From Squalus acanthias (Eukaryota), in NCBI GenBank assembly GCA_030390025.1, contig CM059432.1, positions 40,798,001-40,862,000 of the forward strand: 64,000 bases of DNA, read 5' to 3'. Both the position numbers and the translations under genes were made by a program. Positions 14,060 through 57,467 of this stretch are shown in pieces; position 1 is the stretch's first letter; each line of letters starts with the position of its first letter. Under the pieces are notes generated by a model, which had not been told where the DNA came from, did not search any database, and saw only the letters and a program-made list of their open reading frames with translations.

Positions 14060-16514
14060 AACAAATTAGTAACAATACTGTGGAGGAGGAATTCCTGGAG
14101 TGTATACGGGATGGTTTCCTGGACCAATATGTCGAGGAACCAACTAGAGATCAGGCCATCTTAGACTGGGTATTATGTAATGAGAAAGGATTAATTAGCA
14201 ATCTTGTTGTGCGAGGCGCCCCTTGGGTCGGAGCGATCATAATATGATAGAATTCTTCATTAAGATGGAGAGTGAAGTAGTTGACTCAGAGACTAGGGTC
14301 CTGAATTTAAATAAAGGAAACTACGATGGTATGAGGCGCGAGTTGGGTAGGATTGATTGGGGAATGTCACTCAAAGGGTTGACGGTGGATAGGCAATGGC
14401 AAACATTCAAAGATTGCATGAATGAACTATAGAATTTGTTCATCCCAGTTTGGCATAAAAATAAAACAAAAAAGGTGACTCAACCGTGGCTAACAAGGGA
14501 AATTAGGGATAGCATAAGATCCAAGGAGAGGACATATAAATTGACAAGAAAAAGCAGAAAACCTGAGGATTGGGAGCAGAATAGGATTCAGCAAAGAAGG
14601 ACAAAGGGATTAATTAAGAGGGGGAAAATAGAGTATGAGAGCAAGCTTTCAGGGAACATAAAAACTGACTGTAAAAGCTTTTATAGATATGTGAAGAGAA
14701 AAAGATTGGTGAAGTCAGGCGTAGGTCCCTTGCAGTCAGAATCAGGGGAATTTATAATGGGGAACAAAGAAATGGCAGACCAATTAAATACATACTTTGG
14801 TTCTGTCTTCACAAAGGAGGACACAAATAACCTCCCAGAGATGTCGGGGAACATAGGGTCTAATGAGAGGGAGGAACTGAAAGAAATCAGTATTTGTAGG
14901 GAAATAGTGTCAGGGAAATTGACGGGATTGAAGGCCGATAAATCCCCAGGGCCTGATAATCTACATCCTAGGGTACTTAAGGAAGTGGCCCGAGAAATAG
15001 TAGATGCATTGCTGGTCATCTTCCAAAATTCGATCGACTCTGGAACAGTACCCATGGATTGGAGGGTAGCTAATGTTACCCCACTATTCAAAAAAGGTGG
15101 CAGAGAGAAAACGGGGAATTATAGACCGGTAAGCCTGACATCGGTAGTGGGGAAAATGCTCGAGTCCATTATAAAAGATGTAATAGCAGAGCACTTGGAA
15201 AACAATGACAGGATCGGACAAAGTCAACATGGATTTACAAAAGGTAAATCGTACTTGACTAATCTACTGGAATTTTTTGAGGATGTAACTGGTAAAATAG
15301 ATAAGGGAGAACCAGTGGATGTGGTGTATTTGGACTTTCAGAAGGTTTTCGATAAGGTCCCGCATAAGAGATTAGCGTGTAAAATTAAAGCACATGGGAT
15401 TGGGGGCAAGGTATTGACTTGGATAGAGAACTGGTTGGCAGACAGAAAGCAAAGAGTCTTTTTCCGAGTGGCAGGCAGTGACTAGTGGGGTACCGCAGGG
15501 ATCAGTCCTAGGACCCCAGCTATTCACAATATATATTAATGATCTAGACGAGGGAATTGGATGTAATATCTCCAAGTTTGCAGATGACACAAAGCTGGGT
15601 GGGAGTGTATGCCATGAGGAGGATGCCGAGAAACTCCAGTATGATTTGGACAGGTTGGGTGATTGGGCAGAAGCATGGCAGATGCAATATAATGTGGATA
15701 AATGCGAGGTTATCCACTTTGGTGTCAAAAACAGGAAGGCAGATTATTATCTGAATGGCAATAGATTGGGAGAAGGGGAAGTGCAACGAGACCTGGGTGT
15801 CTTGTGCACCAGTCGCTGAAGGTAAGCATGCAGGCGCAGCAGGCGGTTAAGAAGGCAAATGGTATGTTGGCCTTCGTAGCGAAAGGATTCAAGTACAGGA
15901 GCAAGGATGTCTTGCTGCAGTTGTACAGGGCCTTGGTGAGACCACACCTTGAGTATTGTGTGCAGTTTTGGTCACCTTATCTGAGGAAGGATGTTCTTGC
16001 CATGGAGGGAGTGCAGCGAAGATTCACCAGGCTGATACCTGGGATGGCAGGAATGACGTATGAGGAGAGATTGGGTCGATTGGGCTTATACTCGCTGGAG
16101 TTTAGAAGAATGAGAGGGGATCTCATTGAAACTTATAAAATTCTAACAGGACTAGACAGACTAGATGCAGGAAGGATGTTCCCGATGGCCGGGGAGTCCA
16201 GAACCAGGGGTCACAGTCTAAGGATAAGGGGTAAGCCATTTAGGACTGAGATGAGGAGGAATTTCTTCATCCAGAGAGTGGTGAACCTGTGGAATTCTCT
16301 ACCACAGAAGGCAGTTGAGGCCAATTCATTAAATATATTCAAGAAGGAGTTAGATATATTTCTTAAAGCTAAAGGGATCAAGGGATATGGAGAGAAGGCA
16401 GGGACAGGGTACTGAATTTGGATGATCAGCCATGATCTCATTGAATGGCGGAGCAGGCTCGAGGGGCTGAATGGCCTACTCCTGCTCCTATCTTCTATGT
16501 TTCTATGTTTCTAT
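14060..16514 (+). mobile_element. CR1 LINE (HER1-like), most of ORF2 plus 3' tail
   Basis: GRSDHNMIEF, KSPGPDNLHPRVLKE, GNYRPVSLTS, YLDFQKVFDKVPH, KFADDTK, MRRNFF; ends in (TTCTATGT)n; few disablements; inserted into an older CR1 tail. Confidence 0.95.
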
Positions 16515-19549: not shown

Positions 19550-20552
19550 TTTTTTTTATTCGTTGCTGGGATGTGGGCGTCGCTGGCAAGGCCAGCATTT
19601 ATTGCCCATCCCTAATTGCCCTTGAGAAGGTGGTGGTGAGCCGCCTTCTTGAACCACTGCAGTCCTTGTGGTGAAGGTACTCCCACAGTGCTGTTAGGGA
19701 GGGGGTTCCAGGATTTTGACCCAGCAACGATGAAGGATCGGCGATATACTTCCAAGTCAGGATGGTGTGTGACTTGGAGGGGAACTTGGAGGTGGTGGTG
19801 TTCCCATACGTCTGCTGCCCTTGTCTTTCTAGGTGGTAGAGGTCGTGATTTTGGGAGGTGCTGCCGAAGAAGCCTTGGTGAGTTGCTGCAGTGCATCTTG
19901 TAGATGGTACACACTGCAGCCACGGTACGCCGGTGGTGGAGGGAGTGAATGTTTAAGGTGGTGGATGGGGTAACAATCAAGCGAGCTGCTTTGTCCTGGA
20001 TGGTGTTGAGCTTCTTGAGTGTTGTTGGAGCTGCACTCATCCAGGCAAGTGGAGAGTATTCCATCACACTCCTGACTTGTGCCTTGTAAATGGTGGAAAG
20101 GCTTTGGGGAGTCAGGAGGTGAGTCACTTGCTGCAGAATACCCAGCCTCTGACCTGCTCATGTTGCCACAGTATTTATGTGGTTGGTCCACTTAAATTTC
20201 TGGTCAATGGTAACCCCCAGAATGTTGATGGTGGGGGATTCGGCGATGGTAATGCCGTTGAACGACAAGGGGCGGTTGTTAAACTCTCGCTTTTTGGAGA
20301 TAGTCATTGTCTGGCCCGTGTGTGGCGCGAATGTTACTTGCCACTTCTCAGCCCAAGCTGAATGTCGTCCAGGTCTTGTTGCATGCGGGAATGGACTGCT
20401 TCATTATCTGAGTGGTTGCGAATTGAACGGAACACTGTGCAATCATCAGCGAACATCCCCACTTCTGACCTTATGATGGAGGGAAGGTCATTGATGAAGC
20501 AGTTGAAGGTGGTTGGGCCTAGGACACTGCCCTGAGGAACTCCTGCAGCGAG
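19550..20552 (-). mobile_element. LINE family B, 5'-truncated
   Basis: Reverse complement of the 7910-8889 region including T-run and tail. Confidence 0.92.
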
Positions 20553-21907
20553 GTTACAAATGCATATTTAATCCCAGCACAAATACTACAACAACTTGCA
20601 TTTATATAGCACCTTTAACATAGTTAAACATCCCAAAGTGCTGCACAGGAGCGTTATCAAACAAAATCTGATCCAGGCAGACTGTTACATTTTTTGGTTT
20701 TACACTAGATGGTGTACTTGGGGTTGGTGCCACTGACCACTCCCATAAGAGGACTTTGCATCCTCAGCAACCCGGAGTGTCCCTTTACTTTCCTAATATC
20801 TAGCTAAATAGTAGAGAGACCCAAAGGTCAAACAGAGAACCCTTTCCAATAAACACTGGCTTCTCACCATGGGAACCCAACAGTCTTTCTCTTCTCTGCT
20901 ACATTTCATCCAGGAGTGTTCGAAGGTTGGTCTCATTGAAATTGTGTGTTCTTCTTTTCTCCCTCCTTACACCAATCACCACAAGGACTGCTGTGGTTCA
21001 AGGAGAAGGATACCTTAGGGCATCAAGGGATGGACAATAAATGTGACCTTCCACATCCAGAGAACAATTAAAAAAAAATGCCCTGTTCTTTGCTCAAGGT
21101 GCCTCTGCCAAGTCCTACACATGAAGACATGTTTTAAAAGTGCCACAAAATTATACATCAGCCATCTAATCCAGATACTTTACAGTCAACTCACTGGGCT
21201 GAATTTTCCGTGGTGGTAGCCGGTGTGATCGGTGGCGGGTCGGGTGGGAAAGTTATTATTTTTGACAGCGGGTCGGGAACCCACCGTCATCTCACTCCCA
21301 CGTGCCTTTCCCCCAGGCGCCTCTGTCATCATGCAGCTGACCCGACCTGCAGTAGCGGGGGACCCAATTGAAATCATTATAAGGTAGTTGACAGGCACTT
21401 AAGAGCCTCTTTCCCCTTACTTTTTAAGTTTCCCTGCATGGCCACGGGATTCATGCAGCTCGGGAACCATGTCTGTCAAACTGAGGCATGAGTTCCGTGG
21501 CCATTGCTTCAGCTGATTACTTGACAGCATGGAAAACAAACCAAAATAAAAACATGTTGATTACATCAACTAATTGATTGATGGAGATTCTGTTCTATTT
21601 GAAAAGCTACTGGTAAATGTTAATTCAGAAATTCCTGAGGGGATGTAAATGCTACCCTGGATGGTGAGGGAAATACATTTTTCACTGGCCATTCTCAGCT
21701 GTTGCCTTCCAACACAACAGTAATTGCAGTGAATTGATCTGCACTATAAAAAATGACATATACCATTTCAATAAATCTTTGTGTTGTTTCTGGTCAGGTT
21801 TTTTCTCACTGTATACTGTGATTGTCCAGTTACACATTAAATCAAGTCATCAACCGTAACAATTTCAATCTCATTATTTATTCCACTGGTTCAATTTGCT
21901 TTCAGTC

Positions 21908-23885
21908 CCATCAACATCCTGGGGGTCACCATTGACCAGAAACTTAACTGGGCCAGCCACATAAATACTGTGGCAACAAGAGCAGGTCAGAGGCTAGGTA
22001 TTCTGCGGCAAGTGTCTCACCTCCTGACTCCCCAAAGCCTTTCCACCATCTACAAGGCACAAGTCAGGAGTGTGATGGAATACTCTCCACTTGCCTGGAT
22101 GAGTGCAGCTCCAACAACACTCAAGAAGCTCAACACCATCCAGGACAAAGCAGCTCGCTTGATTGTTACCCCATCCACCACCTTAAACATTCACTCCCTC
22201 CACCACCGGCGTACCGTGGCTGCACTGTGTATCATCTACAAGATGCACTGCAACAACTCGCCAAGGCTTCTTCGGCAGCACCTCCCAAATCCGCGACCTC
22301 TTCCAACTAGAAGGACAAGGGCAGCAGACGCATGGAAACACCACCACCTCCAAGTTCCCCTCCAAGTCACACATCATCCTGACTTAGAAGTATATCGCCG
22401 ATCCTTCATTGTCGTTGGGTCAAAATCCTGGAACTCCCTCCCTAACAGCATTGTGGGAGTACCTTCACCACGCAAGTACCTTCACCATGCTTCACAACGA
22501 CATGCAAGCCGTGATCCTGACCAAAGGTTCCACCACAGACCCAATTCACATACGGACCGGGGTCAAGCAAGGCTGTGTCATCGCACCAACGCTCTTCTCG
22601 ATCTTCCTTGCTGCAATGCTCCATCTCACCATCAGTAAGCTCCCCGCTGGAGTGGAGCTAATTTACAGAACAAATGGGAAACTGTTCAACCTCCATCGCC
22701 TCCAGTCCAGATCCAAGGTCGTCCCATCCTCTGTCGTCGAATTACAGCATGCAGACGATGCTTGCATCTGCGCACACTCGGAGGTCGAACTCCAAACCAT
22801 TGTCAACACCTTCACCGAAGCGTACGAGAGCATAGGCTTTACACTAAACATTCGTAAGACAAAGGTCCTCTACCAACCTGCCCCCACCACACAGTACTGC
22901 CCCCCAATTATCAAAATCCACGACAAGGCCTTGGACAACGTGGACCATTTTCCATACCTCGGGAACCTACTGTCAACAAGGCAGACGTCGATGATGAGGT
23001 CCAACGCCGCCTTCAGTTTGCCAGTACAGCCTTTGGTCACCTGAGGAAGAGAGTGTTTGAAGACCAGGACCTCAAACCCGGCACCAAGCTCATGGGCTAC
23101 AGAGCAGTAGTGATACCTGCCCTCCTGTATGCCTCAGAGACATGGACCATGTACAGCAGGCACCTCAAAGCACTGGAGAGGTACCACCAACCCTGCCTTC
23201 ACAAGATCCTGCAAATCCATTGGCAGGATAGGCGCACCAATGTCAGTGTTCTCGGTCAGGCCAACATCCCCAGCATCAAAGCTTTGACCACGCTCGATCA
23301 GCTCCGATGGATGGGTCACATCGTCCGCATGCCCGATACGAGACTCCCAAAACAAGCGCTCTACTCGGAGCTCCGACACGGCAAGAGAGCCCCAGGTGGG
23401 CAGAGGAAATGCTTCAAGGACACCCTCAAAGCCTCCTTGAAAAAGTGCAACATCCCCACCGACACCTGGGAATCCCTGGCCCAAGACCGCACAAAGTGAA
23501 GGAGAAGCATCTGGGAAGGCGCCGAACTCCTCGAGTCTCTTCGCCGGGAGCAAGCGGAAGCCAAGCACAAGCAGCGCAAGGAGCGCACGTCAACCCAAGC
23601 ACCCCACCCACCCCTTCAACCACCATCTGCCCCACTTGTGACAGAGACTGTATGTCCCGCATTGGACTCATCAGTCACCTGAGAACTCATTTTTAATGTG
23701 GAAGCAAGTCATCCTTGGTTCCGAGGGCCTGCCTAAGAAGAGAAGAAGAGAGTACCTTCACCACACGGACTGCAGCAGTTCAAGAAGGTGGCTCACCACC
23801 ACCTTCTCAAGGGCAATTAGGGATGGGCAATAAATGCTGGCCTTGCCAGTGACGCCCACATCCCATAAACAAATTTAAAAAAAAT
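21908..23885 (+). mobile_element. LINE family B 3' part, split by RTE insertion
   Basis: Family-B sequence runs 21908-22471 and resumes at 23750 through the tail and A-run. Confidence 0.92.
22488..23749 (+). mobile_element. RTE-clade LINE, 5'-truncated
   Basis: GVKQGCVIAPTLF, LQHADD, FPYLG, LLYASETW, QLRWMGHIVRMPDTRLPKQALYSEL, CPTC...SHLRTH finger, AAG-rich tail, 15-bp TSD GAGTACCTTCACCAC. Confidence 0.93.
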
Positions 23886-40609: not shown

Positions 40610-41390
40610 GGTAGGCATGGAATAGTGCTGCATCACAGCAACAATTGGCAGATATGAGCCCTGTACAAGTCTTGCTTTATAGTAATGAAAAAGCAGTGTT
40701 ATATAGGTCATCCATTACAATAATGATATTCAGGGAAGCATCTGGTACATTTATTATTGGAGTCAAAGAGCCTTGTGCAGGTGATTTTAATAGATGAGCC
40801 CTTTTAAAATGTGTTACAGTAATGAGTGATGTGGAAGAGCCCTTTACAGGTGTGATATAGCAATAAGTGGCATAGAAGAGGCTTCTACAGAAGTTTTAAA
40901 GCATTTATTAGCATAGAGGTGCTCTGTACATGTTTATTACAGTAATGTTTGGCATAGATGAGTGCTCTTCAGATGTGCTACTGTAATGAGTAACATGGAA
41001 GAGCCCTATAAAGGTATTTTATAGCAATCACTGGCATGGAAATTCCCTGTACAAGTGTGTTACACTAAATAAACAGCTCTGTACTAGCAAGTTACAGTAA
41101 TGATTGGCATTATCCCTGTACAGGTGTGTAAAATAATGATTGGCGTGAAGGAGACCTGTAAAAATGTGCTACAATAATGAGTGACATGAAAAAAGCCCTG
41201 TACAGGAGTGTTACATAAATGATTGCCACGGAAGAGGCCTGTACTGATGTATTACAGTAATGAGTGGCATGGATGAGCCCAATACAAGTTCTGCATGATA
41301 GTAATGATTGGCATAGATCAATGTTATATACGTCATCTCTTACAATAATGGTCAATATGGAAGACCCTGTACATAGGTGTTACGACAGTA
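40610..41390. repeat. Degenerate 41-bp minisatellite, roughly 18 units
   Basis: Approximate consensus GTGTTACAGTAATGAGTGGCATGGAAGAGCCCTGTACAGGT; unit starts at 40811, 40852, 40893, 40975, 41016, 41057. Confidence 0.85.
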
Positions 41391-41659
41391 TCCAAGTTCT
41401 AATGTTCATATAAAAGCCTGAACATTACAGATTGTGCTAATTAAACAAAATTGCTATTTGGTGATAATGTATACATTCTTTCAATGTTCAGCTTCACTTA
41501 ACCTCTAAGATCTAATGAAAATTGTATCATTCTCACTTTGTTAGTAGAATAGTTTATCTTAAGAAAATTCTTCATTCTGAATTTTTTGTTTTGGATGTTA
41601 CTATTTTTGCATCAATATGCTTTTTACCTATGTTTCCATTCTGAGTAGCACATCATATT

Positions 41660-41818
41660 TTACAACAAGTAAAGATCCACATAGCGACTGCCAATGTGGT
41701 GGTGGTTCTTCTCTACCACAGCTTGCTTGGCAGCATCCAATGATGGGAATATCACAAAAGCGTCGCTGCTGGACTGTCCGTATAAGTTGGACATGATCAG
41801 CACAGACTCGGGGGGAAT
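41660..41818 (-). CDS. ESRP1: ESRP1 alternative last coding exon completing a fourth quasi-RRM
   Basis: Acceptor TTTTTTATTTACTGATGCAG, phase 0, IPPESVLIMSNLYGQSSSDAFVIFPSLDAAKQAVVEKNHHHIGSRYVDLYLL*; donor ATAG|GTAAAA 32 nt after the stop (exon ends 41628). Confidence 0.85.
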   Translation of the reverse strand: MPPESVLIMSNLYGQSSSDAFVIFPSLDAAKQAVVEKNHHHIGSRYVDLYLL

Positions 41819-42979
41819 CTGCATCAGTAAATAAAAAACAGCATGGCAATAATAGATAACTGGAGATATATCCCACAGCAACATGCGCCATCCCATAGAT
41901 AAAATCCCAGCACCAGACAGGCTTCTTTCATTCAGCTACTTACACTTTCCCATCACCTTGAGGTTCATTTTGCTACCATATCTTAGTGTTGCTAATTTGG
42001 AACACACCAGTAAACCCTACTCTGTTTCAAAGTGCTGCTGCACCTACATTTCCATATGGATAAGTATCTGTAGGATATACAGAGAATCAACAACAGCTTG
42101 AATTGTGTTCCAGGGGTGGAAGTCCTGGCATAGTCAGAAGTTGTGAAAGAGAGAGACAAGCTCAAACAGTTTCCACAGTCACATCCCTAAGACTGAGCTT
42201 CAGCCTCAAACTTGATGGCAATAATGGAAGCCTCTGTTAATGCTGCTCTATAACATCCACGAAGAGAGCAGCCCAGGATGATTTGCCCTCCCTCCTTGTA
42301 GGGAAGTGTCTAGTATCTTTTGGGGCTCCCTACTGTACCATGGCTGAAATCAGGAATTTTCATTATAGGAAATTGCGCATGGACCTGTGTCCTGTTGATA
42401 TGTGGTGTTGTGATGCAGGCTACCATTCCCCATCTACAATAATATCGCTATTAAATAAGTCAGCCAATTTTTGCAGTAACTGCTACTATGATTGAACTAC
42501 ACCTTTCACATTTAGAACCCCTAAAGGCTGATTAACATGGGAATGTGCAAGAAAAGGCGAGTTAGATTACAAGATCAGACATGAAACAAACACAGGGCTG
42601 CTACAAAAGAACTGGGATTTTTTTTTATTATAAAAGAGTGTCAAGTGATGAAGAAGGGGAAATCACTGAGAAGTAAGCAACTGGCTCTGTTGTGTTGAGT
42701 ATTTCTGTACTATATGTTAGTGTTGTGCAAGTTTTAATCTTATTTTCATCTCAGATAGCTACTTTTTAAATAATGAAGACTTATGCATGTCATGTTGCCG
42801 ATCCGAGAAGTACTGTTATGGAAATGTGCGGAGTGAAGGCAAGGCGTGTCACTTCTCCAGAGAGAGAGAGAGGACAAACTGAAGGTCAAGTCATTGAGCT
42901 GCATGCCGAGCTCCTAGGAGCCGGCAGAGGTCTTGAAGCAGGCCATTTGTCTACCCTTTCAATCCAGGTATGTGCATAG

Positions 42980-43225
42980 AAAGAAAGAACTTCTATTTAT
43001 ATAACCTCGAGACATACCAAATCATTTTATAGCCAATGAAATACTTTTGAAGTGTAGTCACTGTTGTAATGTAAGGGAAACTGGCAGCCAATTTCCGCAC
43101 AGCAAGGTCCCACCATCAGCAATTAGATAATGACTAGGCAATCTGTTTTGATGGCGTTGGTTGAGGAATAAATGGTCAGAACACGGGGACAACTCGCCAG
43201 TTCTTCAAATAGTACCACAGGATAT
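42980..43225 (-). mobile_element. Deu-core SINE 3' half
   Basis: AGCCAATGAAATACTTTTGAAGTGTAGTCACTGTTGTAATGTA...GCAGCCAATTT...GCACAGCAAG...GTTGGTTGAGG. Confidence 0.8.
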
Positions 43226-43784
43226 ATTAGGCTTATTTAAAAAGGAGTCTAACATTTTTTCCCCCACTGTAGCTGTATAATTGCCCACTCCCAATGTATG
43301 CAAGATTATTATGCACTTAAATGCCGTAACCTACAAGGCTATGGACCAAGAGCTGGAAAGTGGGAATTGGGCTGGATAACTCTTTTTCGGCTGGCACAGA
43401 CATGATGGGCCAAATGGCCTCCTTCTGTGGCATAAATTTCTATGATTATTTTGCTGATCGGCTTTCTCTATTGCTTTGCATTTTACCTCAGTACTCAATA
43501 TTAATTTAGGAGCATCTATAAGACATATTAAAAGCAAACACTTTGAAACAGATACTTAGGCACAAGGCGCAGCAACTTATGTGCATTTGAAAAACCTTAA
43601 ACCCACACAAAATGAAGAAAGCTGAAATCTGATCCACAATGCTTTGCACACATGTACACCATCAGTTTTCCCAACACCACATGATTTGTGAAAGCATCTT
43701 TAATACAGGTCGAGTGACCCAGTTAGGTGGACATAGCACTTCCTTACCTGCCTTCTCTTACAAGAGGTCTATCTCATGAGCCAT

Positions 43785-43874
43785 TTAAATACAGACCCAT
43801 TCTTTGGGATGTGTGAACATTGTCCTGGCCTGGTCATGCGCATGCACAAGTCCTTGGCATTCCTCAGCTGGATA
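43785..43874 (-). CDS. ESRP1: ESRP1 canonical last coding exon (EWVCI tail)
   Basis: Acceptor TTCAACCTTGCATCAG, phase 0, YPAEECQGLVHAHDQARTMFTHPKEWVCI*; donor GCAG|GTAAGG 37 nt after the stop (exon ends 43748). Resembles the mammalian ESRP1 end [24 protein letters not shown] as recalled. Confidence 0.93.
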   Translation of the reverse strand, partial: YPAEECQGLVHAHDQARTMFTHPKEWVCI

Positions 43875-44332
43875 CTGATGCAAGGTTGAACATACATAAA
43901 AATCTATTAAACTCACACCACCATTTCTGTCTCATCAAATAAAAAACACATGCTGCAATAGTTTGCTGCTGAGTCTTATCGGATTCCTTTCAAAAGTTTA
44001 CCTTTAAATTGTACATTAGCTCTCAATTCCCAGACAGTAATTCCTGAGTGGAGGTACATTAGGTGAGATGTCATTCAAAGTGGATGTGGGTATTGTGATT
44101 TGAGTTATATCTGGCTTGACTTCCCAACAATGTTGCCCAACCGCATGTTCTGCTGCTGTCTGGCATCTGTCCAGAAGGCTGACCATGTACAATAGCATAG
44201 TGAGGCCAGTTGCGTTCAAATGATAGCCATATCTTGGGATTTACATCGGTTGTGCATCCCAGTACTTTAGCTTTAAAGATACTAAACTACCCCGGAACAG
44301 TATTTTGTGGGACATTACTTACTGTGAAACAT

Positions 44333-45092
44333 GGGGGAATTTTAACATGGAGGAGCGGGTGGGAGGGGTTAAATGAGCAAAGAAATGGAAGCGTGTCGGG
44401 AAGTTAGCTCCAACCAGCTGACTTCTGGCTTTTACTCAGGCGGGACAAGGGGCAGCCAACCCGGTCCCAGGAGGCGAGTTGCTTTTTTAAATATGTTAAT
44501 GAGGGTGGAAGCCTCGGATTTAAACTAACTGTGGCCAGCCGGGTTTCCTAACCTGGCAGCTGCAGCGAGGTGAAGACAGCCTCAGGGAGCACTCCTTTGT
44601 GGGCCAGGAGGGATTCCTTCCAGCCCCCCAGGCTCCCCCACCATCAGACGCCCCCCCCGGGATCAAGGATCGGACCCCCAGTGGTCAGGAATCAGACACC
44701 CACCCCAGACCCCGGGGATCGGACCCCCAGTGGTCAGGAATCAGACACCCACCCCAGACCCCGGGGATCGGACCCCCAGTGGTCAGGAATCAGACCCCCA
44801 CCCCAGACCCCGGGGATCGGACCCCCAGTGGTCAGGAATCAGACACCCACCCCAGACCCCGGGGATCGGACTTACCTGGTCCTGCGGCCTCTTCCCCAAC
44901 GTTCCCCGCTCAACTGGAAGCCAAGTCGTCAATCAGACTGACTTCTGGGCGAGGAATCTGTCAGTGATGAAAGACGCGCGCTGTGGAGTTAAATCTCCAC
45001 AGCACGCGGGGAAACCCAGATTTCCAGGTTTCCCACGCGCTACTGGGCCCTGCGCCCCGCGCATCAAAGTGTTAAAATCCCCCCCTCCCCCC
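44333..45092. mobile_element. Harbinger-like MITE containing a tandem repeat
   Basis: GGGGGAATTTTAAC...GTTAAAATCCCCC, CAT on both flanks (right end blurred by C-run). Confidence 0.7.
44667..44871. repeat. 49-bp tandem repeat, 4.2 copies
   Basis: GGATCGGACCCCCAGTGGTCAGGAATCAGACACCCACCCCAGACCCCGG at 44667, 44716, 44765, 44814; one substitution in unit 3. Confidence 0.95.
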
Positions 45093-45149
45093 CATAATTT
45101 CAAGATATGAAAATCACTCTCCAAAAAACTGCATGTTTCTTAATTAGAT

Positions 45150-45455
45150 TTTTTTTTTAATTAATTCTCGGGATGTGGGCACTGTGGCAAGGCCAGCATT
45201 TCTTGCCTATCCCTAATCGCCAAGAGAAGGTGGTGGTGGGCCTTCTTCTTGAATTGCTGGTAGCAGTTTGATACAACTGTGTGGCTTGCTAGGCCACTTC
45301 AGAGGGCAGTTAAGAATCAATCATGTTGGTGTGGGATTGGAGTCCCATATAGGGCAGACTGCGCAAGAAAGGCAGGTTTCCTTCCCTAAAGGATATTAGT
45401 GAACCAGTTAAGTTTTTACGACAATCCAGTAGCTTTATGGTCATATTTACTGATA
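45150..45455 (-). mobile_element. SINE 3' part with LINE-B tail
   Basis: Reverse match to 59550-59790. Confidence 0.75.
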
Positions 45456-46283
45456 CAGCCCCCACAATTTGCTATACACGGTGTACTCCTGCTCCTCCAG
45501 GCTCCACAGTCAAGTATTTTGTACAAAACTTAGCTTTTTGGCAGAGGCTTCCAGCGGTCCCTTTAAGGATCGCTGGTTAGGCCATACATAGACCTGGTTA
45601 ACCTGAACGCAGCCAGCCCAGTGTTGGCAGCATTCAGGGCAGCCCAATTTTGGGAAGGAGTCATATAACAGGCCTCAGGCCTCCTATTTGCACATGCAAA
45701 ATTTCTAACGGCTGTTTCAGGCATGTACACTGGACACCACCTAGAAATTTGTGTGTGCTGTAGGCTCTGAGTTTGGTTTAATAATATGGAGAGGGTGGAG
45801 AAGACAGTGGGTAATGGACAGCACAGTGGTGGAGGCTGTTTGTGAAAACAGCAGCTCCTTCCCCTGTGGGCCAGCAGCGACCGCAATGAAATTGCTAGCT
45901 ACAGCAATCGGAGGTGGAGTAGCGTAATTCACGCTGCTCAGATAAGAATTGACCATCTGCAACCAAAGATCCCGTCCCGACTATAAGAATGCTGTAGCTG
46001 TGCTGGGATTCGACCAAAAAGAACAGGCCGCAAAAGTCATGAATAAATTACATCTGTCTGGCTGTATGGAGAAAATCTGACTTTTAAAAACCTGAGCAGC
46101 AGAGTGTCTATATTTGAATAAACTGTGAATAACAAATTCATTTGTAATAAAAGTCACTGTTTTAGAAAAGTGCGCACTCTCTACCATAAGAAGTATATTC
46201 CAGTTATTGATAACCATATAAATCACTGGTAAATCAGGAAGCACAGATTATAAGGTTGGTAGTAGAATTCCACAGGAAGGGCC

Positions 46284-46299
46284 TGTTGCCATGGCAACA
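46284..46299. promoter_or_regulatory. Perfect palindromic RFX X-box
   Basis: TGTTGCCATGGCAACA, next to CAGGAAG ETS-like cores, in non-repetitive intron sequence. Confidence 0.55.
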
Positions 46300-46448
46300 A
46301 GCTGTCTTAGCTATGCCTCATCTGTCAAAAAGGTCACCAGTCGCCACTAAGAAAAACTGCAGTTCAATGGAAATATCATATCTGATTAACTGGCACTGAA
46401 CTTATATTGATTCTGAAAATTGATGGAGGAAAAAAAATGGAAAATAAT

Positions 46449-47277
46449 GGGCCAGAATTTGCGGTGGGTATGACAGCATATTCTCAGAGTATGCCGTCAT
46501 ACCACCTTTGAAATGGACCGCAAGTTTGGGATTTCCGCATGCGCTGGCGTATGCGCTAAATCCCGAACTTGCGATGTCAAGTTACGACTTGACAGATCAT
46601 CCACTCCGCCTTGGAAATCTCAATTGCTGGTGCAGAGTTGGGCTAATTGCCCATCAACTGCCCAGCAATTACGAAAATTTTACAGCTGATGCAAACAGGC
46701 ATATACGGTCAAATATTTCCGCTTCTTGTTAATACTGTCCAATATTTCCGCTTCTTGTTAATACTGTCCAATATTTCTGCTTCTTTAGAGTATTTTATAT
46801 GAAATTTTACAGAGCTTGAATGATTTATCAGAACTCTAATTCCTAAATTAGATTTAAAAATTAATTCCCAAATCATTTTTTTTTTTTTTTTTTAGGTGGG
46901 TCTGAGTGAGAGAGAGAGCGGGTCATTTTGGAACTATTTATTCTCCTGGTCCTTATAATTATTCTGAAAATACATCCAATTGCAGATAATTCTGTAAAAA
47001 TATAACGTTGGATGAAATGCAATATAAAGAACGTTACCAGTATTGGAGGTACATACTTTCCCTTCGGTGTACTGATTGGAGCACCAGGCCCACGTGATCC
47101 CAGGTACGCTTCCGCACACGCTGCGCCCCTGGGATCCATGGACCGTTACGCTGCCCTCGAGTACACAGCGTCAGAGAGCAAGTTCACGAAGGAGGGTCCC
47201 CATCAGGTAAGTTCGTATTCTATTCGGATGTTGGCGGCGTACTCCATAGGTACGCTGCCGACCGCAAAATCTGCCCA
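46449..47277. mobile_element. Harbinger-like MITE
   Basis: GGGCCAGAATTTGCGG...CCGCAAAATCTGCCCA flanked by AAT/AAT; internal 29-bp tandem repeat at 46712-46784. Confidence 0.8.
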
Positions 47278-50200
47278 AATGCATCTACGGCAGTACACAT
47301 TTTTAAAGAGCGAGCGACCATACATAGAGCTATCCATATTGGGGAAATGTTCTAAAATGATCAAATAGGTTACATTTTTCAAACCAAAATGAATAAGTCT
47401 CCTTATTATGAGAAATTATCACCATCAAAATAACATCTGAATTGCACAGGTTGGTTGCATCCAGCTTAAAGGAGGGATACTGCATGTGGAGAGCCAAAAG
47501 TTATCAACTTTTTATTTAAAAAACACTAAGGACTTGTCAGTTCTCCTTTTGATTTTTTCTCCCCTTACCCTTCCTCTTCTGAAGGTGGTGATGTTTACAT
47601 AGGTAAAGTTCAACAGGTGCTGGCCACCTTTGGGCCAACTTTGCCCAATTAGCCAGAATGCATACATGAGTGTAGACAGCAAGTCTGTTTGACTGTAGGG
47701 GCTATCAGAGCCGAATATGATCCTGTCCTTGCCAGACAGCCACACATGCTAAAATCCAACAGTAGTCACTGAATAGCAGGCAGTAACTTGAAACCCTGGC
47801 AAGGTTTCCCTTCTAGCCCAAGGACACTTAGGACTTTTACTTTACATTCAGATTAACAGAAGGTGATAGGTGAGCTTTAAAAAATGTCTTCGAAAGTTTG
47901 ATGGAATTTTATTTAGCTCATACAAGGTGCACTAGCAGGATTGTAGCACTGGAATTAAAGCATTCCTTCATCCACCAATTCAATTTCTGGTGTTCCAGAC
48001 GAACAACCACAAAAGTAGTCATCAGTTAAATTTTGGAAAAGGCACATTTATGGCTAATCACAAGGCAGCTATTTGTTCAATGACATGGCAGAGTGCTCTG
48101 AAAAACAATGGCACTCTGGAAAAAAAACAAGGTACTTGGGAAAAAATAAGTAAAGGCAGGGCGCTGTGCCCTGATATAATCAATTAGCGAGAACATGGAC
48201 ATATGACCTAGAACAACCACTGAGCTGCCTAAGACCAAACTGATTGACCTGTGTGAATGACAAATTTGCACAAGGTGACAAAGAGTGAAAGATAACCAAT
48301 ATTCCATCTTCTCCATGCCACAAATGTTGCCTGAACTGTGCCCTTAACAAATAAAGGTGGGTTTTCTGGGGTCAGTAATCAGCTGGCTGTGCACTTCATT
48401 GCAAGTTTACAATTAGCTTCCAGCACTTGGCACCATCTGGCACATGCACAGTTGAGAAAGATTAAAGTTTATAGTGATGACAACGGAGAATTAGTAACTA
48501 TGCGTAAACTGAAAACACTGCCACATTAGTTTTTCAGCCTTCATTAATCATTTTTAAAGCCATGCTTGCCGATACACACTTTATACTATGGAATATGCCA
48601 GATGTGCAGTTTGATTTCACTCGAGTCAGCTGCTAATTTCTAGTTTTGTATTTTTTTAATTGTATTTGTAATATCCAACTTTTCTTAATCCCCTCCCCGC
48701 ATTCAGGTTCTCTCCTTCCCATGGGCTTCTTTAGCTGGTATGGGAGATCAAAAAGTCAGAGACTCCCTCGCAACTGACAGTACCAAAGCCAGTCAACAAT
48801 CAGCTGTCAGAGGTATGTTTGCTGCAGTGTGGAACAGTTAATGCTTATCCTGGATAGGAAATGTGCCTCTTGCAATAGGCATCCTGCTTTGGGTCCTCGG
48901 TGAGACCAAGACTTCACAAACCATGTGAAAAGACGGGGTCGGTGGGAGTTTTGGTCTAGGTAGTTTGATCAAATCCTCCCCCTTCTTTTACTGGGATTCC
49001 AGGAATGAATAAATGAGAGAGATTTTGTCATGAATAACTTTTACAAAATAAATGTACAGCTGTATTTTTCCATATAAATACTTATGGCAATTGTAGGGTT
49101 TAGTTCTGAGTGTTCCATTGACTAACAATCATGGCTATAGGAAGCCAGCATTCGAACTGTTCTACTACTGGACTATTCAAGTTCGGAGAACTCACTCTAC
49201 GAGGCTCTCACTACTCCATAATTGTGTGCATGATCATGCACATGACTGTTCTGTAGGGATGAACATTACAGAGTGTAAATAATATTGTGGGCAATACTAA
49301 TACTGAGATACACTGAAAACAGTGAGCGCTAATGAGATCAAGGCGATCTAGCTTTGAAGAATTACTGAGCCCGTCAGTGTGAGGGAGCTGGACTCACACA
49401 CATACCGTTGAAACTACATGATCACTCAAACACTAGATTAATGACTACTTGGCCTATTTTGGAAACACTGGGTATTAGACCTTGCTGCCTGCCAAAATAA
49501 GTCAGGAGCTCCACCCAAGCTATTTTTTTAGACTCTGCAGTCAGACCTGGATTTGCATATTTAAGTTTGCTCCCAATGATATTTGAATGTTGCTATAATA
49601 ATGTATTGGCAGTCAGGGGCAGTGCAGACATCAGGTTCAGCAGCTAATTATGAATGCTTGTCAGTGGTATTTTTTTTTTTAAAGACCTAAATCTTGTTCC
49701 TGCTTGCAGTGAATTGACACCACTGCACTTCTGCACTAGTAGGCATAACACTCAAACTTTTTCTAGAGGAAGTGGATTTATTCTTTATATAATATACTGG
49801 CAAGCAGGCAGGGCCTGTGAAAAAGGCAGGTTTGAGCTAGACTTAACGCCCTGTGGTACGAGCGCTGGAAAACTGAAACTGGATGATGCTTACTTTTGCC
49901 CTGTCCTTAATTTGCCTCAACTGCCCTCAGCAGGTGCACATCATAAAATAGCTAACTTGAAGGAGGCTAGTGTGGCTATCCAAATATGAGGTAGTACGCA
50001 ATCTACAGTCAAAAATTTATCACCCTCTTGGATCATTTCTGCTGCAGTGGGTTTCCGGCCCGAATAGGATAAATTCAGTGATTCTGTGCTCCCAGTGGGA
50101 AGCAGTGCTTGAAGGCAACACTGATCAGAGTAAGGGCGACAACAGTGTAGCGCTGAACCTCCAACCCTTGCTTCCTTTGAATGAGTCTCCATGCTGGGAG

Positions 50201-51486
50201 CAAGGGATCAGTGAATTTACCCACTAGTTCCCATTGTAATTATTACTAGCTGGCTATCGACACAATGAGAGCATGCCTAAGAAGGGCCCGCCCACCCTGC
50301 CCCAACAGGAATCACTATCTTCATTTTTTTCCTCATCAGACGGAAAGTTACCAATCTTGGCTAGGCCATTGAGTGCAACACAGGTGACCATCAGATCATC
50401 TAGTAACCAAACACAGAGCAACATTGACCAGATAAGCACAGGCAGGACAGTCCATTCCAGATGGTACAACCAAGAAGGAAATAAATCAAAAGAAATTACA
50501 ATTTAATAAACACACACAATATGACAAATTAATTTAGCTTATTTTTTTTTCCAGCTGCCAAATAAATCATGTTTGGCAGTTTATGCATCCACTTGTTTTA
50601 TCTGCACACTAGCGCTTTTGTACAAGATTAACACAGCAGCATAGCAACACATTATATGTCACGGACACTGCTCCCAATCCATACAAGCAATGCTTTGTAA
50701 AGAGAACTCCCTCTAGAACATCACTCAAATCAGTGTAATGCCTTGAAAATCACAGAGCAGTGGCATCGCCAACCTCACAGGTCTAAACGTGTTGCAATGC
50801 ACACATTTTCCAAAGACCCTGAAATAGACCTCAGAGCCACTGGTACAAAGAGAAGTAAACAAAACGTCAGAAGTACGCAGACTCACTGAGAAGTTTGTTG
50901 CTACACCATTGTATAACAATATTGGTTAACAGGCTTTCAACATTATAGCTTAAGGCAGTGGCATAAAATGAAATCATCAAAAATTACAAATAATTTTACA
51001 TTCTACTGTGAACCTGTCCAATGAAGTAGCAATATGGTTGACACTGCTCTGCTCTCTCCTCTTATAAGGAGCATGGTATACTTTTATCCCCCCAGGTATG
51101 TAATGGGGTGGTATCATTGAGGTATTCCAAGATACTTTATCCTGTTTAAAAATGGAGGTGGGTGCGATGACACAATCAGCAACACAAACAGAGTGAGTGT
51201 ATGCATTGAGTGGGGTGGCATTGCATAATACATACAAGGAAGGATCTAGGTTCAATCACTAGTTTGTACTAGGTTAGCTGATTTGTATAGTGTAGTAGGG
51301 GTATGATAATTGGTCTCAAAAGTGTCCAAACCAGGGAACAATCAGCAGGTGTTCCTGCTCCCAGTACTTTCCAGCGACGCTAGCTGGAAGTTTGTGTGTT
51401 TGAATGATAGACTTGGTTCTGATAACATCAGCTGCCAAATAGTCAGGCAACACTCACTGATTCAATGCGCACACTGATCCACATCC

Positions 51487-52140
51487 TGGGATGTGGACAT
51501 CACTGCAAGGCCAGCATTTATTGCCTATCCATAATTGCCCTTGAGAAGGCAGTGGTGAGCCACCTTCTTGAACCACTGCAGTCCCTGTGGTGAAGGAACT
51601 CCCATAATGTTGTTAGGGAGAGAGTTCCAGGATTTTGACCCAGCGACAATGAAGGAATGGCGATATATTTCCAAGTCAGGATGGTGGGTGACTTGGAGGG
51701 GAACTTGGAGGTGATGGTGTTCCCATGCACCTGCTGCCCTTGTCCTTCTAGGTGGTAGAGGTCGCGGGTTTGGGAGGTGCTGTCGAAGAAGACTTGGTGA
51801 GTTGCTGCAGTGCATCTTGTAGATGGTACACACTGCAGCCACGGTGCACCAGTGGTGGAAGGAGTGAATGTTTAAGGTGGTGGATGGGGTGCCAATCAAG
51901 CGGGCTGCTTTGTCCTGGATGGTGTCAAGCTTCTCGAGTGTTGTTGGAGCCAGGCAAGTGGAGATTATTCCATCACACTCCTGACTTGTGCCTTGTAGAT
52001 GGTGGAAAGGCTTTGGGGAGTCAGGAGGTGAGACACTCACTGCAGAGTACCCAGCCTCTGACCTGCTCTTGTAGCCACAGTATTTATGTGGCTGGCCCAG
52101 TTAAATTTCTGGTCAATGGTTACCCCCAGGATGTTGATGA
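51487..52140 (-). mobile_element. LINE family B 3' fragment
   Basis: Reverse complement of family-B 3' region and tail. Confidence 0.9.
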
Positions 52141-52565
52141 GTACCAGAAGGACTCGCCTCTGTGGAACCATTCAAAGCATGAGTTAGTGCCTTCAACAGT
52201 GGAGAAGATCACAGGGGCCAATAGAAAATATTAGCAGCACAACATTTGGGTCAACATCTCCTGAAAGTAAAGTAACCTAAAAACTCTCCATTGAGGTGAT
52301 GGCATCCTGTAAATACTTCACCAGTTAGAATTTAGTGAAGTTGGTTCTAGTTACACTTAAGATCCATCTTCATAGAGCAAAGCAGTAACCCGTACCACCC
52401 CATACACCAGTTTCCACTGTGCACCCACAATAATTAATAGTCTTGTGGCCATTTCATATAAATTGAGTGGCAAGGAGCGAGTGTAGGTAATTACTACCTG
52501 CACTCATTTCCCATTGTTAGTTTAGGAGCAGTGTTAGGGAAAATTCAATGGAACCTGAAGATTTA

Positions 52566-53503
<938 letters not shown>

Positions 53504-54002
53504 TTAAACTTTAAAAAAAAACATTGGCTGAAGTAATGCCTGCTGTAAATCTTCAGTTGGGCAGTGCTCCAGTAGTGTTTCTCTGTAAATGAAATGATAC
53601 TACTTATGATGGCAAATATTAATTTTGCTACCATATATTGCTGTAAACAGGCTAAAAGGGATGGTATTACAACAGCTATTGTTGAGTGAATTTCACCCAT
53701 ACTAATGTAACATATACCACAGGTCATTAAGGATTTATGTGAATATATGAGCATTGTGGCAGGTAATCTCTGGCTGTATGTCCAGATACCATATTTATGG
53801 TTTCTTGTTCTGTTCCACTTCAAATGCATATTGTATTATGAAAAATGTTTTAAAAATAAAATGAATAGCATTCACAAAATGGGCTAAATCACAGTGTATG
53901 GAAATCAGTCCCATTCAATCACCGATCTGCATTCAGGCTATAAGTTTTTTGACTAATTTGAGCAGTTCACAAAGGAGGAAACACATTCTTACTGTAGCCT
54001 GT

Positions 54003-56590
54003 CATAGAAGAATGGTTACAGCACAAAAGGAGGCCATTCAGCCCATCGAGCCCATGCCGGCTCTCTGTAAGAGCACTTCAGCTAGTACCGCTCACCTGCC
54101 CTTTCCCCACAGCCCTGCAAATTTTCAGGTACTTCTCCAATTCCCTTTTGAAAGCCACGATTGAATCTGCCTCCACTACCCTTTCAGGCAGTGCATTCCA
54201 GATCCTAACCACTCGCTGCGTAAAAAAGTTTTTCCTCATGTCGCCTTTGGTTCTTTTGCCAATCACCTTAAATCTGTGTCCTCTGGTTCTCGACCCTTCC
54301 ACCAATGGGAGCAGTTTCTCTCTATCTACTCTGTTTAGAGCCCTCATGATTTTGAGCACATAAAATCTCCTCTCAACCTTCTCTGCTCGAAGGAGAACAA
54401 CCCCAGCTTCTCTAGTTTATCCACGTAATTGAAGTCCCCCATCCCTGGAACCATTCCCGTAAACCTTTTTTGAACCCTCTCTAAGGCCTTCATATCCTTC
54501 CTAGACTGCGGTGTCCAGAATTGGACACAATACTCCAGTTGAGGCTGAACCAGTGTTTTATGAAGGTTCATCATAACTTTCTCTATGCCTCTATTTATGA
54601 AGCCCAGGATTCTGTATGCTTTTTTAACCGCTTTCTTTACCTGCCTTGCCACTTTTAATGATTTGTGCACATATACCCTCAGGTCACTCTGTTCATGCAC
54701 CCCCTTTAGAATTGTACCCTTTAGTTTATATTGCCTCTCCTCGTTCTTCCTACTAAAATGTATCACTTGGCACTTTTCTGCATTAAATTGCACCTGCCAT
54801 GCGTCCACCCATTTCACCAGCCTATATATGTCTTCTTGAAGTCTATCACTATCCTCCTCACTGTTCACTATACTTCCAAGTTTTGTGTCATCTGCAGATT
54901 TTGAAATTGTGCTTTGTACACCCATATCCAAGTCAAGAAAAGCAGTGGTCCTAGTACTGACCCCTGGGGAACACCACTGTATACCTTCCTCCAGTCCAAA
55001 AAACAACCGTTCATCACTACTCTCGGTTTCCTGTCACAGCCAATTTCGTATCCATGCTGCCACTGTCCCTTTTATTCCATGGGCTTCAACTTTGCTGGCA
55101 AGCCTATTATGTGGCACTTTATCAAACGCCTTTTGGAAGTCCATGTACACCACATCAACCGCATTACCCTCATCAACCCTCTCTGTTACCTCATCAAAAA
55201 ACTCAATCAAATTAGTTAAACACCATTTGCCTTTAACAAATCCGTGTTGGCTTTCCTTAATTAATTCACACTTGTCCAAGTGACAGTTAATTTTGTCCCG
55301 GATTTCTAAAAGCTTCCCCACTACCGAGGTTAAACTGGTAGTTGCTGGGTTTATCCTTGCACCCTTTTTTGAACAAGGGTGTAACATTTGCAATTCTCCC
55401 ATCGTCTGGCACCACTCCTGTATCTAAGGAGGATTGGAATATTATGGCCAGTACATCTGCAATTTCCACCGTAACTTTCCTCAGCATCCTAGGATGCTTC
55501 CTATCCAGTCCTGGTGACTTATTTGCTTTAAGTACAGCCAGCCTTTCTAGTACCTCCTCTATCAATTTTTATCCCATCCAGTATCTCCACTACCTCTGCT
55601 TTCACTATGACTTTGGCAGCATCTTCTTCCTTGGTGAAGATAGATGCAAAGTTCTCATTTAGTACCTCAGCTAAGCCCTCTGCCTCCATGTGTAGGTCTC
55701 CTTTTTGGTCCCTAATCGGCCCCACCCCTTCTCTGACTACCCGTTTGCTATTTATATGCCTATAGAAAACTTTTGCATTCCCTTTTATGTTAGCTGCCAA
55801 TCTATTTTCATACTCTCTCTTTGCCCCTTATTTTCTTTTTCACTTCCCCTCTGAACTTTCTATAGTCAGCCTGATTCCCACTTGTATTCTCAACCTGACA
55901 TCTGTCATACGCGCTCTTTTTCTGCTTCATCTTACTCTCTATCTCTTTCGTCATCCAGGGAGCTCTGACTTTGGTTGCCCTACCTTTTCCCCTCGTGGGA
56001 ATGTGCCTCGACTGTACCTGAACCATCTCCTCTTTAAAGGCAGCCCATTGTTCAATTACAGTTTTGCCTGCCAGTCTTTGATTCCAATTTACCCGGGCCA
56101 GATCCATTCTCAACCCACTGAAATTGACCACCTTCCAATTAAGTATTTTTACTGTAGATTGCTCCCTGTCCTTCTCCATAGCTAATTTAAACCTTATGAT
56201 ACTATACCCTAAATGTTCCCCTACTGACACTTGCTCCACTTGACCCACCTCATTCCCCAGAACCAGATCCAGCAATGCCTCCTTCCTCATTGGGCCGGAA
56301 ACATACTGATCAAGAAAGTTCTCCTGAACACACTAAAGAAATTCTTTCCCCTCTCTGCCCTTTACACTATTACTATCCCAGTCTATGTTAGGAATAGTTG
56401 AAGTCCCCCATTATCACTACTCTATAGTTCTTGCACCTCTCTGTAATTTCCCTGCAAATTTGCAAAGTTTGGAAAGTTTCTTAATTATAACAGGCACCAA
56501 ACTAGTGGGAAATCCTTCCCACTAGTTGGCGGCCTAAAGAATACACCTAGTAGTGTAATGGCACCTCTATTATTTCTTAACTCTAACAGC
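54003..56590 (-). mobile_element. CR1 LINE, most of ORF2 plus 3' tail, decayed
   Basis: EALLDLVLGNE, KSPGLD, YMDFQKAFDKVPH, SADDTKLG, LEYCVQFW, MRKNFFTQRVVRIWN across frames. Confidence 0.93.
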
Positions 56591-57316
56591 ATAGCTGATT
56601 TTTGGTGACCAGTTTTATGTTGGCAAGTTTCAGAATGCATTTTCTGGAATACCTGGCATATGCAGGAATACAGAAAACTTAACAGTGAACACCTGCCTCA
56701 AACAAAATCTGACATAGTTTATCAACTAGTTTCCAAGATTTGTCGACACAGTGAAAATCCAATGAACTAGTCATTAAAATATTAACACTATTCAACAGTT
56801 CTCTTTCTCTCTCCATTGTTCCTCCTCCTCTCCTCAAGGCTGACTCTTAATACAATATAGTTCCACAAGTTCTGGCAACCCTCCAATACCCCACCCAATT
56901 GGTCATTCATCATGAGTAAGCCAAGATAGTGAGTGTCAACAGGCCACGCAACTGTGGAGACATCACAATCAAGTCCAATCCTGTCCAGCAGGGACCCCTA
57001 GAGTGTGATCCTTGCACACAGGCCAACTGTGATGCCATATCACATCATCAGCTGAGATCAGCTAACTCAACCCACACCGAGGATTGAACACGAGACATTC
57101 CTGCAAACCAACAATATTTCTTCAGCACAATTTATATCAATAGCTTTATTGTGTTGCTTAAGCAATATTTGAATTACTTTGCTTGGATCTAATTATGATG
57201 GAGATTGTGGGTGTTCCTGCAAATTGGTTCTTCGCAGAAGCAATTAAATTTATCCTTGCATAACTGGCTGAGAGTTCCACAGTCTGACTTAAATTGCTTT
57301 TCAGGAAGCTACTAAC

Positions 57317-57467
57317 CTGATAGCCCTGGAAGAAATTAAGGATTTCCTTGACTCCTGTGTTGTAAGCTAGTCCTTGCATCCTGACGATGGTGCCAGGCTG
57401 GGTTGGGATAGTGGCAGCGGCAGCAGGTGTTGGGAAATAGCCTATGCTGGTCGGGGACCCAGGGGGA
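57317..57467 (-). CDS. ESRP1: ESRP1 internal coding exon (151 nt)
   Basis: Acceptor TCTTTATTTCTAG, phase 2 in, [50 protein letters not shown], donor CAG|GTTAGT, phase 0 out. [19 protein letters not shown] favours ESRP1 over ESRP2. Confidence 0.95.

Follow-up and report, generated by a model that had tools for sequence, protein, structure and literature searches.

ESRP1 and ESRP2 are master regulators of epithelial splicing and have been studied in development, clefting and cancer. Here we analyse a stretch of 64,000 nucleotides from the shark Squalus acanthias (GenBank assembly GCA_030390025.1, contig CM059432.1, positions 40,798,001 to 40,862,000 of the forward strand; hereafter the window), which contains the 3' end of a shark ESRP1 gene with its last three exons, all on the minus strand. 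As far as the available text of Yang and Carstens (2017; PMC5478600) goes, Esrp1 is described there with three RNA recognition motifs (RRMs), and the region corresponding to the one analysed here is placed downstream of all of them; exons 14 (151 nt) and 15 (72 nt) are presented as cassette exons, each of which can be skipped, with a stop codon in exon 15 if both are included and termination in the terminal exon 16 if both are skipped. The 72 nt given for exon 15 in that text are shorter than 24 codons plus a stop. A comparison of human, mouse and zebrafish ESRP proteins from 2024 (PMC11344038) treats RRM1-3 only, in the part of that paper that is available.

The shark locus closely resembles mouse Esrp1 as portrayed in the available text of PMC5478600: the shark exon at 57317-57467 and mouse exon 14 both measure 151 nt, and the shark exon is likewise followed by a stop-bearing cassette exon and a terminal exon. 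We consider it very probable that the cassette lies inside a fourth RRM (RRM4) that is split by an intron, and that the last three exons of ESRP1 thereby decide between a protein with three RRMs and half of a fourth and a protein with four RRMs. If the cassette is included, the protein would end in 29 residues closing with PKEWVCI and would comprise three RRMs plus half of RRM4, a half that would be unable to fold as an RRM, and the next exon would serve as 3' untranslated region (UTR). If the cassette is skipped, ...FFQGYQ would be joined to IPPESV...DLYLL (41818-41663), and a fourth RRM of the quasi-RRM (qRRM) type would be completed at the extreme C-terminus. The stop-bearing cassette within the intron that splits RRM4 would be common to jawed-vertebrate ESRP1 and ESRP2.

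Exon anatomy and splicing at the 3' end of the gene

The exon at 57317-57467 is preceded by AG, is read from 57466 and ends in phase 0 before a GTTAGT donor; its last 25 codons correspond to beta1-alpha1 of RRM4. A 13.4-kb intron (43875-57316, minus strand), which contains fragments of reverse-transcriptase genes of the long interspersed nuclear element (LINE) type and a CT/GA simple repeat of about 0.8 kb, separates it from the stop-bearing cassette exon (43748-43874, minus strand, 127 nt). The cassette begins after CAG with 29 codons (YPAEEC...PKEWVCI, 43874-43788; translation YPAEECQGLVHAHDQARTMFTHPKEWVCI), which are followed by a TAA stop at 43787-43785, 37 untranslated nucleotides and a GTAAGG donor. 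Beyond the second intron (41819-43747, minus strand), the terminal exon starts after CAG with a coding part at 41660-41818 on the same strand, consisting of 52 codons (IPPESV...DLYLL) and a TAA stop at 41662-41660; the frame from 41818 reads IPPESVLIMSNLYGQSSSDAFVIFPSLDAAKQAVVEKNHHHIGSRYVDLYLL. These 52 codons represent beta2-beta3-alpha2-beta4 of RRM4 and are translated only when the cassette is skipped, being part of the 3' UTR otherwise. The peptides, phases, acceptors and stops that the first-pass annotation of this DNA had assigned to the three exons were all found in the sequence as written.

When ESRP1 of the great white shark (Carcharodon) was compared with the window by tblastn, only residues 606-708 aligned, and they did so on these exons; residues below 606 had no tblastn match in the 64-kb window, and the rest of the ESRP1 gene, with the exons for the exonuclease-like N-terminus and RRM1-3, must therefore lie beyond position 64000. 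The closest annotated match is ESRP1 of Heptranchias perlo, with 49 of 50, 28 of 29 and 49 of 52 identical residues over the three exons, the cassette value referring to the short isoform and the terminal-exon value to isoform X3. The C-terminal exons are collinear with and nearly identical to those of known ESRP1 proteins, including the exon encoding the half-RRM and the PKEWVCI tail, as is expected of an orthologue. A search with the 52-residue terminal exon found seven of 12 candidates at E<=0.001, all of them elasmobranch ESRP1; judged by its 77-94% identity to the C-termini of these isoforms, the 52-codon frame is not a product of chance.

Evidence on splicing comes from contigs of four sequencing runs (three studies) mapped to 41300-52700. 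In the contigs of all four runs 43748 is spliced to 41818, with removal of the 1929-nt GT..AG intron. The contigs of runs X1, X2 and X5 (4126, 4343 and 4347 nt, with about 2.06 kb upstream of the cassette) match 43748-43879 and 41300-41818 with 0 mismatches, and in runs X5 and X7 the depth is 0 in the intron bins at 42062-42823 compared with 33-109 on the exons; the contigs of X5 and X7 therefore behave as mRNA. The splice found in all four runs identifies 43874-43748 as an internal cassette and the exon starting at 41818 as the single terminal exon, which contradicts the two alternative C-terminal exons proposed in the first-pass annotation. The second of these had also been given an end at 41628 followed by a donor. 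The contigs, however, run unbroken through this GT at 41627, from 41818 to at least 41300; the GT is thus unused and the exon continues as 3' UTR, which is contiguous with the coding part over 41659-41300 and is extended by the mapped contigs for a further 1.4-1.6 kb. An AATAAA at 39813-39808 on the minus strand is a candidate poly(A) signal.

By the usual rule, an mRNA escapes nonsense-mediated decay if fewer than about 50-55 nt separate its stop codon from the final exon junction. For the cassette stop this distance, measured to the junction at 43748, is 37 nt, and the cassette-included mRNA should therefore escape.

The presence of an acceptor and a stop in each of the two downstream exons could also be explained by two mutually exclusive terminal exons with their own 3' ends, splicing being coupled to polyadenylation, and the fact that the PKEWVCI-type protein is the standard mammalian product would agree with such an arrangement. 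We regard it as highly improbable, given that it is contradicted by the 43748-41818 splice in the contigs of all four runs, that no AATAAA occurs on the minus strand between 43748 and 42629, and that mouse exon 15 is a stop-carrying cassette located before exon 16 in the available text of PMC5478600. A third product has also to be considered, in which a GT inside the cassette, directly after ...PKEW, would be spliced in frame to IPPESV, resulting in an RRM4 with an insert of 26 residues. An in-frame GT is available for this (TGG followed by GTCTGT), and the deposited model chiPu_0004135 contains the join; in contrast, the contigs use the donor at 43748, the model is an ab initio 'hypothetical protein' and one of the seven proteins of the exon search, and the insert would fall inside the fold. 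This product is hardly credible.

The joined C-terminus as a predicted quasi-RRM

Orthologues from Carcharodon, Heptranchias and Hemiscyllium were used as stand-ins for the joined peptide in the RRM tests. Against the 70-position profile of Pfam RRM_1 (PF00076), the 52 residues of the window alone score 19.5 bits over positions 26-68, just below the gathering cut-off of 20.7 bits, which applies to the whole domain. For the 78-residue C-terminus of Carcharodon carcharias isoform X1 the score is 30.9 bits (positions 2-68), and no other RRM stretch of that protein scores higher. Similarly, the long isoform of Heptranchias shows four RRM_1 stretches (74.9 bits) and the short isoform three (48.3 bits), the best stretch of isoform X3 being located at residues 638-705. 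Among sequences in the PDB, RRM4 matches best with qRRM1,2 of hnRNP H (E 1.5e-16) and with RBM12 (7.5e-13); 25 sequences were found at E<=0.01, and the other matches include GRSF1, Glorund and qRRM1-3 of ESRP1.

AlphaFold2 predicted the structure of the 80-residue C-terminus of Hemiscyllium from a 14-row alignment with a predicted local distance difference test (pLDDT) score of 90.8 and a predicted template-modelling (pTM) score of 0.80. The predicted elements (E5-10, H18-24, E35-39, E45-52, H55-65 and E76-79) follow the order beta-alpha-beta-beta-alpha-beta. In Foldseek searches the top matches were RBM12 (TM 0.84-0.88, root-mean-square deviation 1.3 A, 42% identity), hnRNP H, qRRM2 of Glorund and RNA-bound qRRM2 of ESRP1, and the top 20 consisted of qRRM proteins almost throughout. 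On the strength of these profile scores and models we are confident that the C-terminus joined by cassette skipping would be an RRM of the quasi-RRM type found in hnRNP F/H, RBM12 and ESRP; the suggestion made in the first-pass annotation that the terminal exon supplies the rest of an RRM is thus borne out by both the 30.9 bits of the Carcharodon peptide and the high-scoring model. The 60-residue tail of the short isoform, folded likewise with 10 rows, reached a pLDDT of only 51 and a pTM of 0.23 and showed no confident fold. That the PKEWVCI tail might complete the fold in another way is therefore unsupported, although a 60-residue peptide taken out of its context constitutes a weak test.

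RRM4 of the shark protein may bind RNA. Work by Dominguez et al. in 2010 reportedly traced the binding of G-tracts to the loop motifs R-G-L-P-[WFY] and, further on, R-Y-[IV]-E. In RRM1-3 of ESRP proteins and in RRM4 of invertebrates the first-loop motif is RGLP, whereas it is QGLA in RRM4 of vertebrate ESRP1. With MQGLAY and SRYVDLY, the shark domain retains the aromatic residue and RY but has other residues in place of Arg and Pro; the corresponding sequences in RRM4 of invertebrates are MRGLPF/Y and NRYIELF.

Distribution, constraint and alternative readings

The Carcharodon RRM4 region found 42 of 53 candidates. Coverage of 99-100% of the domain was reached by 12 of them, which come from sharks, rays, a skate, gar (W5MVA5) and lungfish (isoform X2) and further include a transcript-derived protein, a degenerate form from lamprey and the merged model chiPu_0004135. 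In another 29 the match is confined to the first half, and the protein closes with PKEWVCI or a short read-through; among them are mammals, the coelacanth, caecilian ESRP1, newts and, from cartilaginous fishes, short or partial forms (isoform X3 of chimaera, a protein of a sawfish and an incomplete model of a catshark). A Cricetulus 'ESRP2' with 91% coverage was dropped, being an ESRP1-like fragment that reads into unrelated sequence after GYQ. Of 77 members read from ten clusters at 90%, 42 carry the RRM4 tail, 21 end in PKEWVC[IL] and 14 have other endings. Both endings are annotated in Heptranchias, Heterodontus, Carcharodon, Mustelus, Hemiscyllium, Chiloscyllium, Stegostoma, Leucoraja and Callorhinchus, and also in gar, lungfish, caecilian ESRP2 and pike ESRP2. 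Four-RRM ESRP1 proteins of sharks, rays, chimaera, gar, sturgeon, lungfish and lamprey are present in RefSeq/UniProt; the fourth RRM is hence not hidden, as the first-pass annotation had called it. The RRM4 tail was also found on seven proteins from Logan contigs that belong to the same 90% cluster as Leucoraja. With 2.2-2.7 kb these contigs are too short to be genomic, and they thus provide transcript evidence of the skipped form in skate.

A profile built from 14 RRM4 sequences found 1821 proteins among the 8000 scored. All of the 28 chosen from these by name and coverage end in an RRM4-type domain, among them ESRP2 of sturgeon, eight teleosts and a caecilian, a hagfish protein and 13 invertebrate proteins; bearers of RRM4 among invertebrates are horseshoe crab, scorpion, tick, Daphnia, centipede, priapulid, brachiopod, mollusc and nematode. 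In Mytilus a 723-residue form with RRM4 exists next to a 628-residue form that lacks it. In an exhaustive search among representative proteins the ranks were driven by the summed scores of several RRMs, and of the 150 top proteins only those 17 were retained whose N-terminus resembles that of ESRP in blastp. They include the Mytilus forms and pike ESRP1 as well as proteins of Chromosphaera, Chlorokybus, Cyanophora and Galdieria in which the last of four RRMs is C-terminal. The ESRP layout, with four RRMs and an N-terminal domain weakly similar to the exonuclease-like domain of ESRP, was noted in a streptophyte alga, a glaucophyte, an ichthyosporean and a red alga. Judging from these comparisons of sequence, the four-RRM architecture of ESRP seems to be much older than animals, and the fourth RRM looks like the ancestral state of the ESRP/fusilli family, usual outside amniotes. 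The amniote ESRP1 proteins among those returned keep only the cassette-included form with the first half of RRM4.

Several annotated proteins differ in detail at this site. The pike has kept both endings of ESRP1, yet decay has affected the two halves of its RRM4, the first reading KDLLNTIQGYQ and the second being shortened; RRM4 of pike ESRP2 is fuller. Of the 14 members read from the lamprey cluster, 12 have a degenerate, His-rich RRM4 tail with DVDLYLM at the end, and PKEWVCI endings are absent; the cassette may thus be an innovation of jawed vertebrates. Models from bichir, centipede and octopod, and also chiPu_0004135, are mis-joined or read through exactly at GYQ / FQGF, and RRM4 may accordingly be interrupted by an intron at the same position in bichir, centipede and octopod. 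Newt ESRP1 isoforms end in GYQVLPDH and several mammalian ones in GYQCLKDVW or GYQCLRD; these endings may be stumps of the frame encoding the second half of RRM4 (RRM4b), which reads VLPESV... in lungfish. The view that the half-RRM at the mammalian C-terminus is a relic, put forward in the first-pass annotation, fits the phylogenetic distribution. What mammals have lost, however, is probably not an exon, as had been proposed, and is better described as a reading frame that decayed within the terminal exon.

Compared with Heptranchias, the RRM4b exon is identical at 47-50 of 52 residues in four other sharks, at 35-42 in skate and electric ray, at 39 in chimaera, at 33 in gar and at 30 in lungfish; for chimaera, gar and lungfish this conservation is close to that of the N-terminal domain (0.60-0.81). 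Of the 25 residues of the first half, 23-25 are identical from shark to lungfish, with nearly no change in mammals. At the DNA level, the contig of run X7, which stems from a related organism, shows a single change in the 156 coding nucleotides (GTA to GTC, synonymous) and 18 changes plus 4 indels in the following 360 nt of UTR (Fisher p=0.019 versus the coding part); this evidence of constraint is weak.

A number of observations weigh against a cassette-controlled RRM4 in this gene and are taken together here. The list of sequencing runs comprises 23, none of which is recorded as RNA, all being 'RNA?' guesses or of unknown type. The exon at 57317-57467 lies outside the mapped interval, and neither the 57317-43874 nor the 57317-41818 join was directly observed; loose contig ends at 41818 or 43874 were absent among the matches listed. 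The mapped contigs (four runs, 41300-52700) contain no junction that skips the cassette, and runs X1, X2 and X5 each yield one unbroken cassette-included mRNA. A break in the contig of run X7 at 41822 corresponds to 4 nt common to the end of the intron and the end of the cassette, which indicates a branch between spliced and unspliced RNA and not a skip. The skipped form may thus be rare or absent in the sampled runs, taking into account that contigs drop minor variants. Furthermore, RRM4b is less conserved than RRM1-3 (identities from shark to chimaera, gar and lungfish of 0.58-0.75 and 0.90-0.93, respectively), RRM4 of pike ESRP1 is clearly decayed, the Fisher test on the X7 contig yields p=0.29 once 10 changes beside an indel are dropped, and RNA binding by RRM4 may be altered by its QGLA motif.

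Some of these points would be expected if the IPPESV...DLYLL frame were merely 3' UTR in this gene, an untranslated relic whose conservation reflects UTR or splicing elements, the long isoforms in RefSeq being driven by homology. Cassette-included mRNA only is seen in all four runs, the comparison with run X7 is not significant without the cluster of changes next to the indel, and the decayed exons of pike ESRP1 and lamprey are nevertheless annotated as coding. On the other hand, all long isoforms read from chondrichthyans (sharks, skates, electric ray and chimaera; 67-96% identity) preserve an unbroken frame, the sole change relative to the X7 contig is a synonymous one at a third position, transcript contigs of skate encode the skipped form, and the peptide is predicted to fold confidently as an RRM. 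We therefore consider a purely untranslated role unlikely and prefer the cassette-dependent completion of RRM4. With respect to the last junction upstream, the contig pieces overrun 43874 by 5 nt (to 43879), and these nucleotides, ATCAG, are the same as the last 5 nt of the exon at 57317; this fits the 57317-43874 join and does not prove it. The splicing toggle between three and four RRMs envisaged in the first-pass annotation is supported in so far as both isoforms are annotated and skate transcripts carry the skipped form, whereas the contigs of the present species show the included form alone; Squalus acanthias presumably makes the skipped form as well.

More tentatively, and with slightly more doubt than conviction, the cassette might act as an on/off switch for the ancestral RRM4 throughout jawed vertebrates, in ESRP1 and ESRP2 alike. 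The four-RRM forms of fishes, ESRP2 of model teleosts included, would then differ in their RNA targets from the three-RRM form studied in mammals, amniote ESRP1 would have been locked in the off state by decay of the frame, and the half-RRM together with PKEWVCI would have gained a function of its own.

The surroundings of the exons are rich in repeats. Within the long intron and its neighbourhood, 42824-43585, 45110-45490 and 51206-52348 are covered by contigs to a depth of 10^4-10^5 in each of the four runs, with many odd joints, and are highly repeated, transcribed intronic elements. A frame of 191 codons at 51525-52100 (minus strand) has copies at 19612-20157 and 21841-22638, and the simple repeat at 52517-53311 (about 0.8 kb, CT/GA-rich) is open in several frames (SLSLSL / RERERE). 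Reverse-transcriptase frames of the LINE type (FxDD, 150-350 codons) are located both within the ESRP1 intron and downstream of the gene, at 54078-56332 (minus strand), 14433-16415 and 7726-8609 (both plus strand) and 19612-23499. Downstream of ESRP1 there is also an uninterrupted frame of 1350 codons (2494-6546, minus strand), which by eye resembles gag-pol of a Ty3/gypsy-type long terminal repeat retrotransposon, with zinc knuckles, a YLDD-type reverse transcriptase and integrase-like motifs.

Comparison with known ESRP proteins and quasi-RRMs

In kind, the locus combines an ordinary RRM with an ordinary stop-bearing cassette, the isoforms are already in public annotation, and no new kind of mechanism is involved. 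What seems to be unpublished is that the cassette lies within a fourth RRM ancestral to the ESRP family. A literature search whose coverage excluded subscription journals and supplements yielded no account of a fourth RRM for ESRP or fusilli, and literature matches to 'four RRM' concern hnRNP L, PTB-type proteins and PABP instead. If our reading is correct, the ancestral ESRP protein would have had four RRMs, as opposed to the three-RRM treatment in the available parts of PMC5478600 and PMC11344038, and in many fishes the inclusion or skipping of the cassette would decide whether RRM4 exists at all. This would give a concrete meaning to a conserved splicing event of unexplained purpose and would account for the resemblance of the mammalian C-terminus to half an RRM. 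It would also call for caution, as fish models may express a domain that is absent from the mammalian protein.

The mammalian and the shark gene diverge in what is encoded beyond the cassette. The frame of mammalian transcripts that skip exon 15 seems to stop after a few codons (GYQCLKDVW), whereas the shark frame continues for 52 codons and completes an RRM; CLKDVW at the start of mammalian exon 16 might be the decayed counterpart of IPPESV/VLPESV. The same join and the same C-terminal RRM as in the shark are found in the long ESRP1 isoforms of other fishes (Heptranchias perlo X3, Carcharodon carcharias X1, Callorhinchus milii X1/X2, Lepisosteus W5MVA5 and Protopterus annectens X1/X2), all of which are automated models for which no published description was found.

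ESRP2 of teleosts, sturgeon and caecilians and the ESRP/fusilli-like proteins of invertebrates share the overall layout, consisting of an exonuclease-like N-terminus, three RRMs, a Pro-rich linker and a C-terminal fourth RRM, and the alternative ending PKEW[VL]CL occurs in pike and caecilian ESRP2 too. They differ in the sequence of the domain, with a diverged last strand in RRM4 of teleost ESRP2, and with RGLP and NRYIELF in invertebrates compared with QGLA and SRYVDLY in vertebrate ESRP1. The short form of Mytilus arises by ending before RRM4 and not through a cassette inside the domain. The best matches in both sequence and structure are the qRRMs of hnRNP F/H, GRSF1, Glorund and RBM12, which have in common with the shark domain the motifs GL-[PA]-[YF], an ILNFF-type helix 1, G-[DE]-A-[FL]-V and IG-x-RY-[IV]-[ED]-L. 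RRM4 of the shark is distinguished from them by its location within an ESRP protein and by the replacement of the first-loop Arg and Pro.

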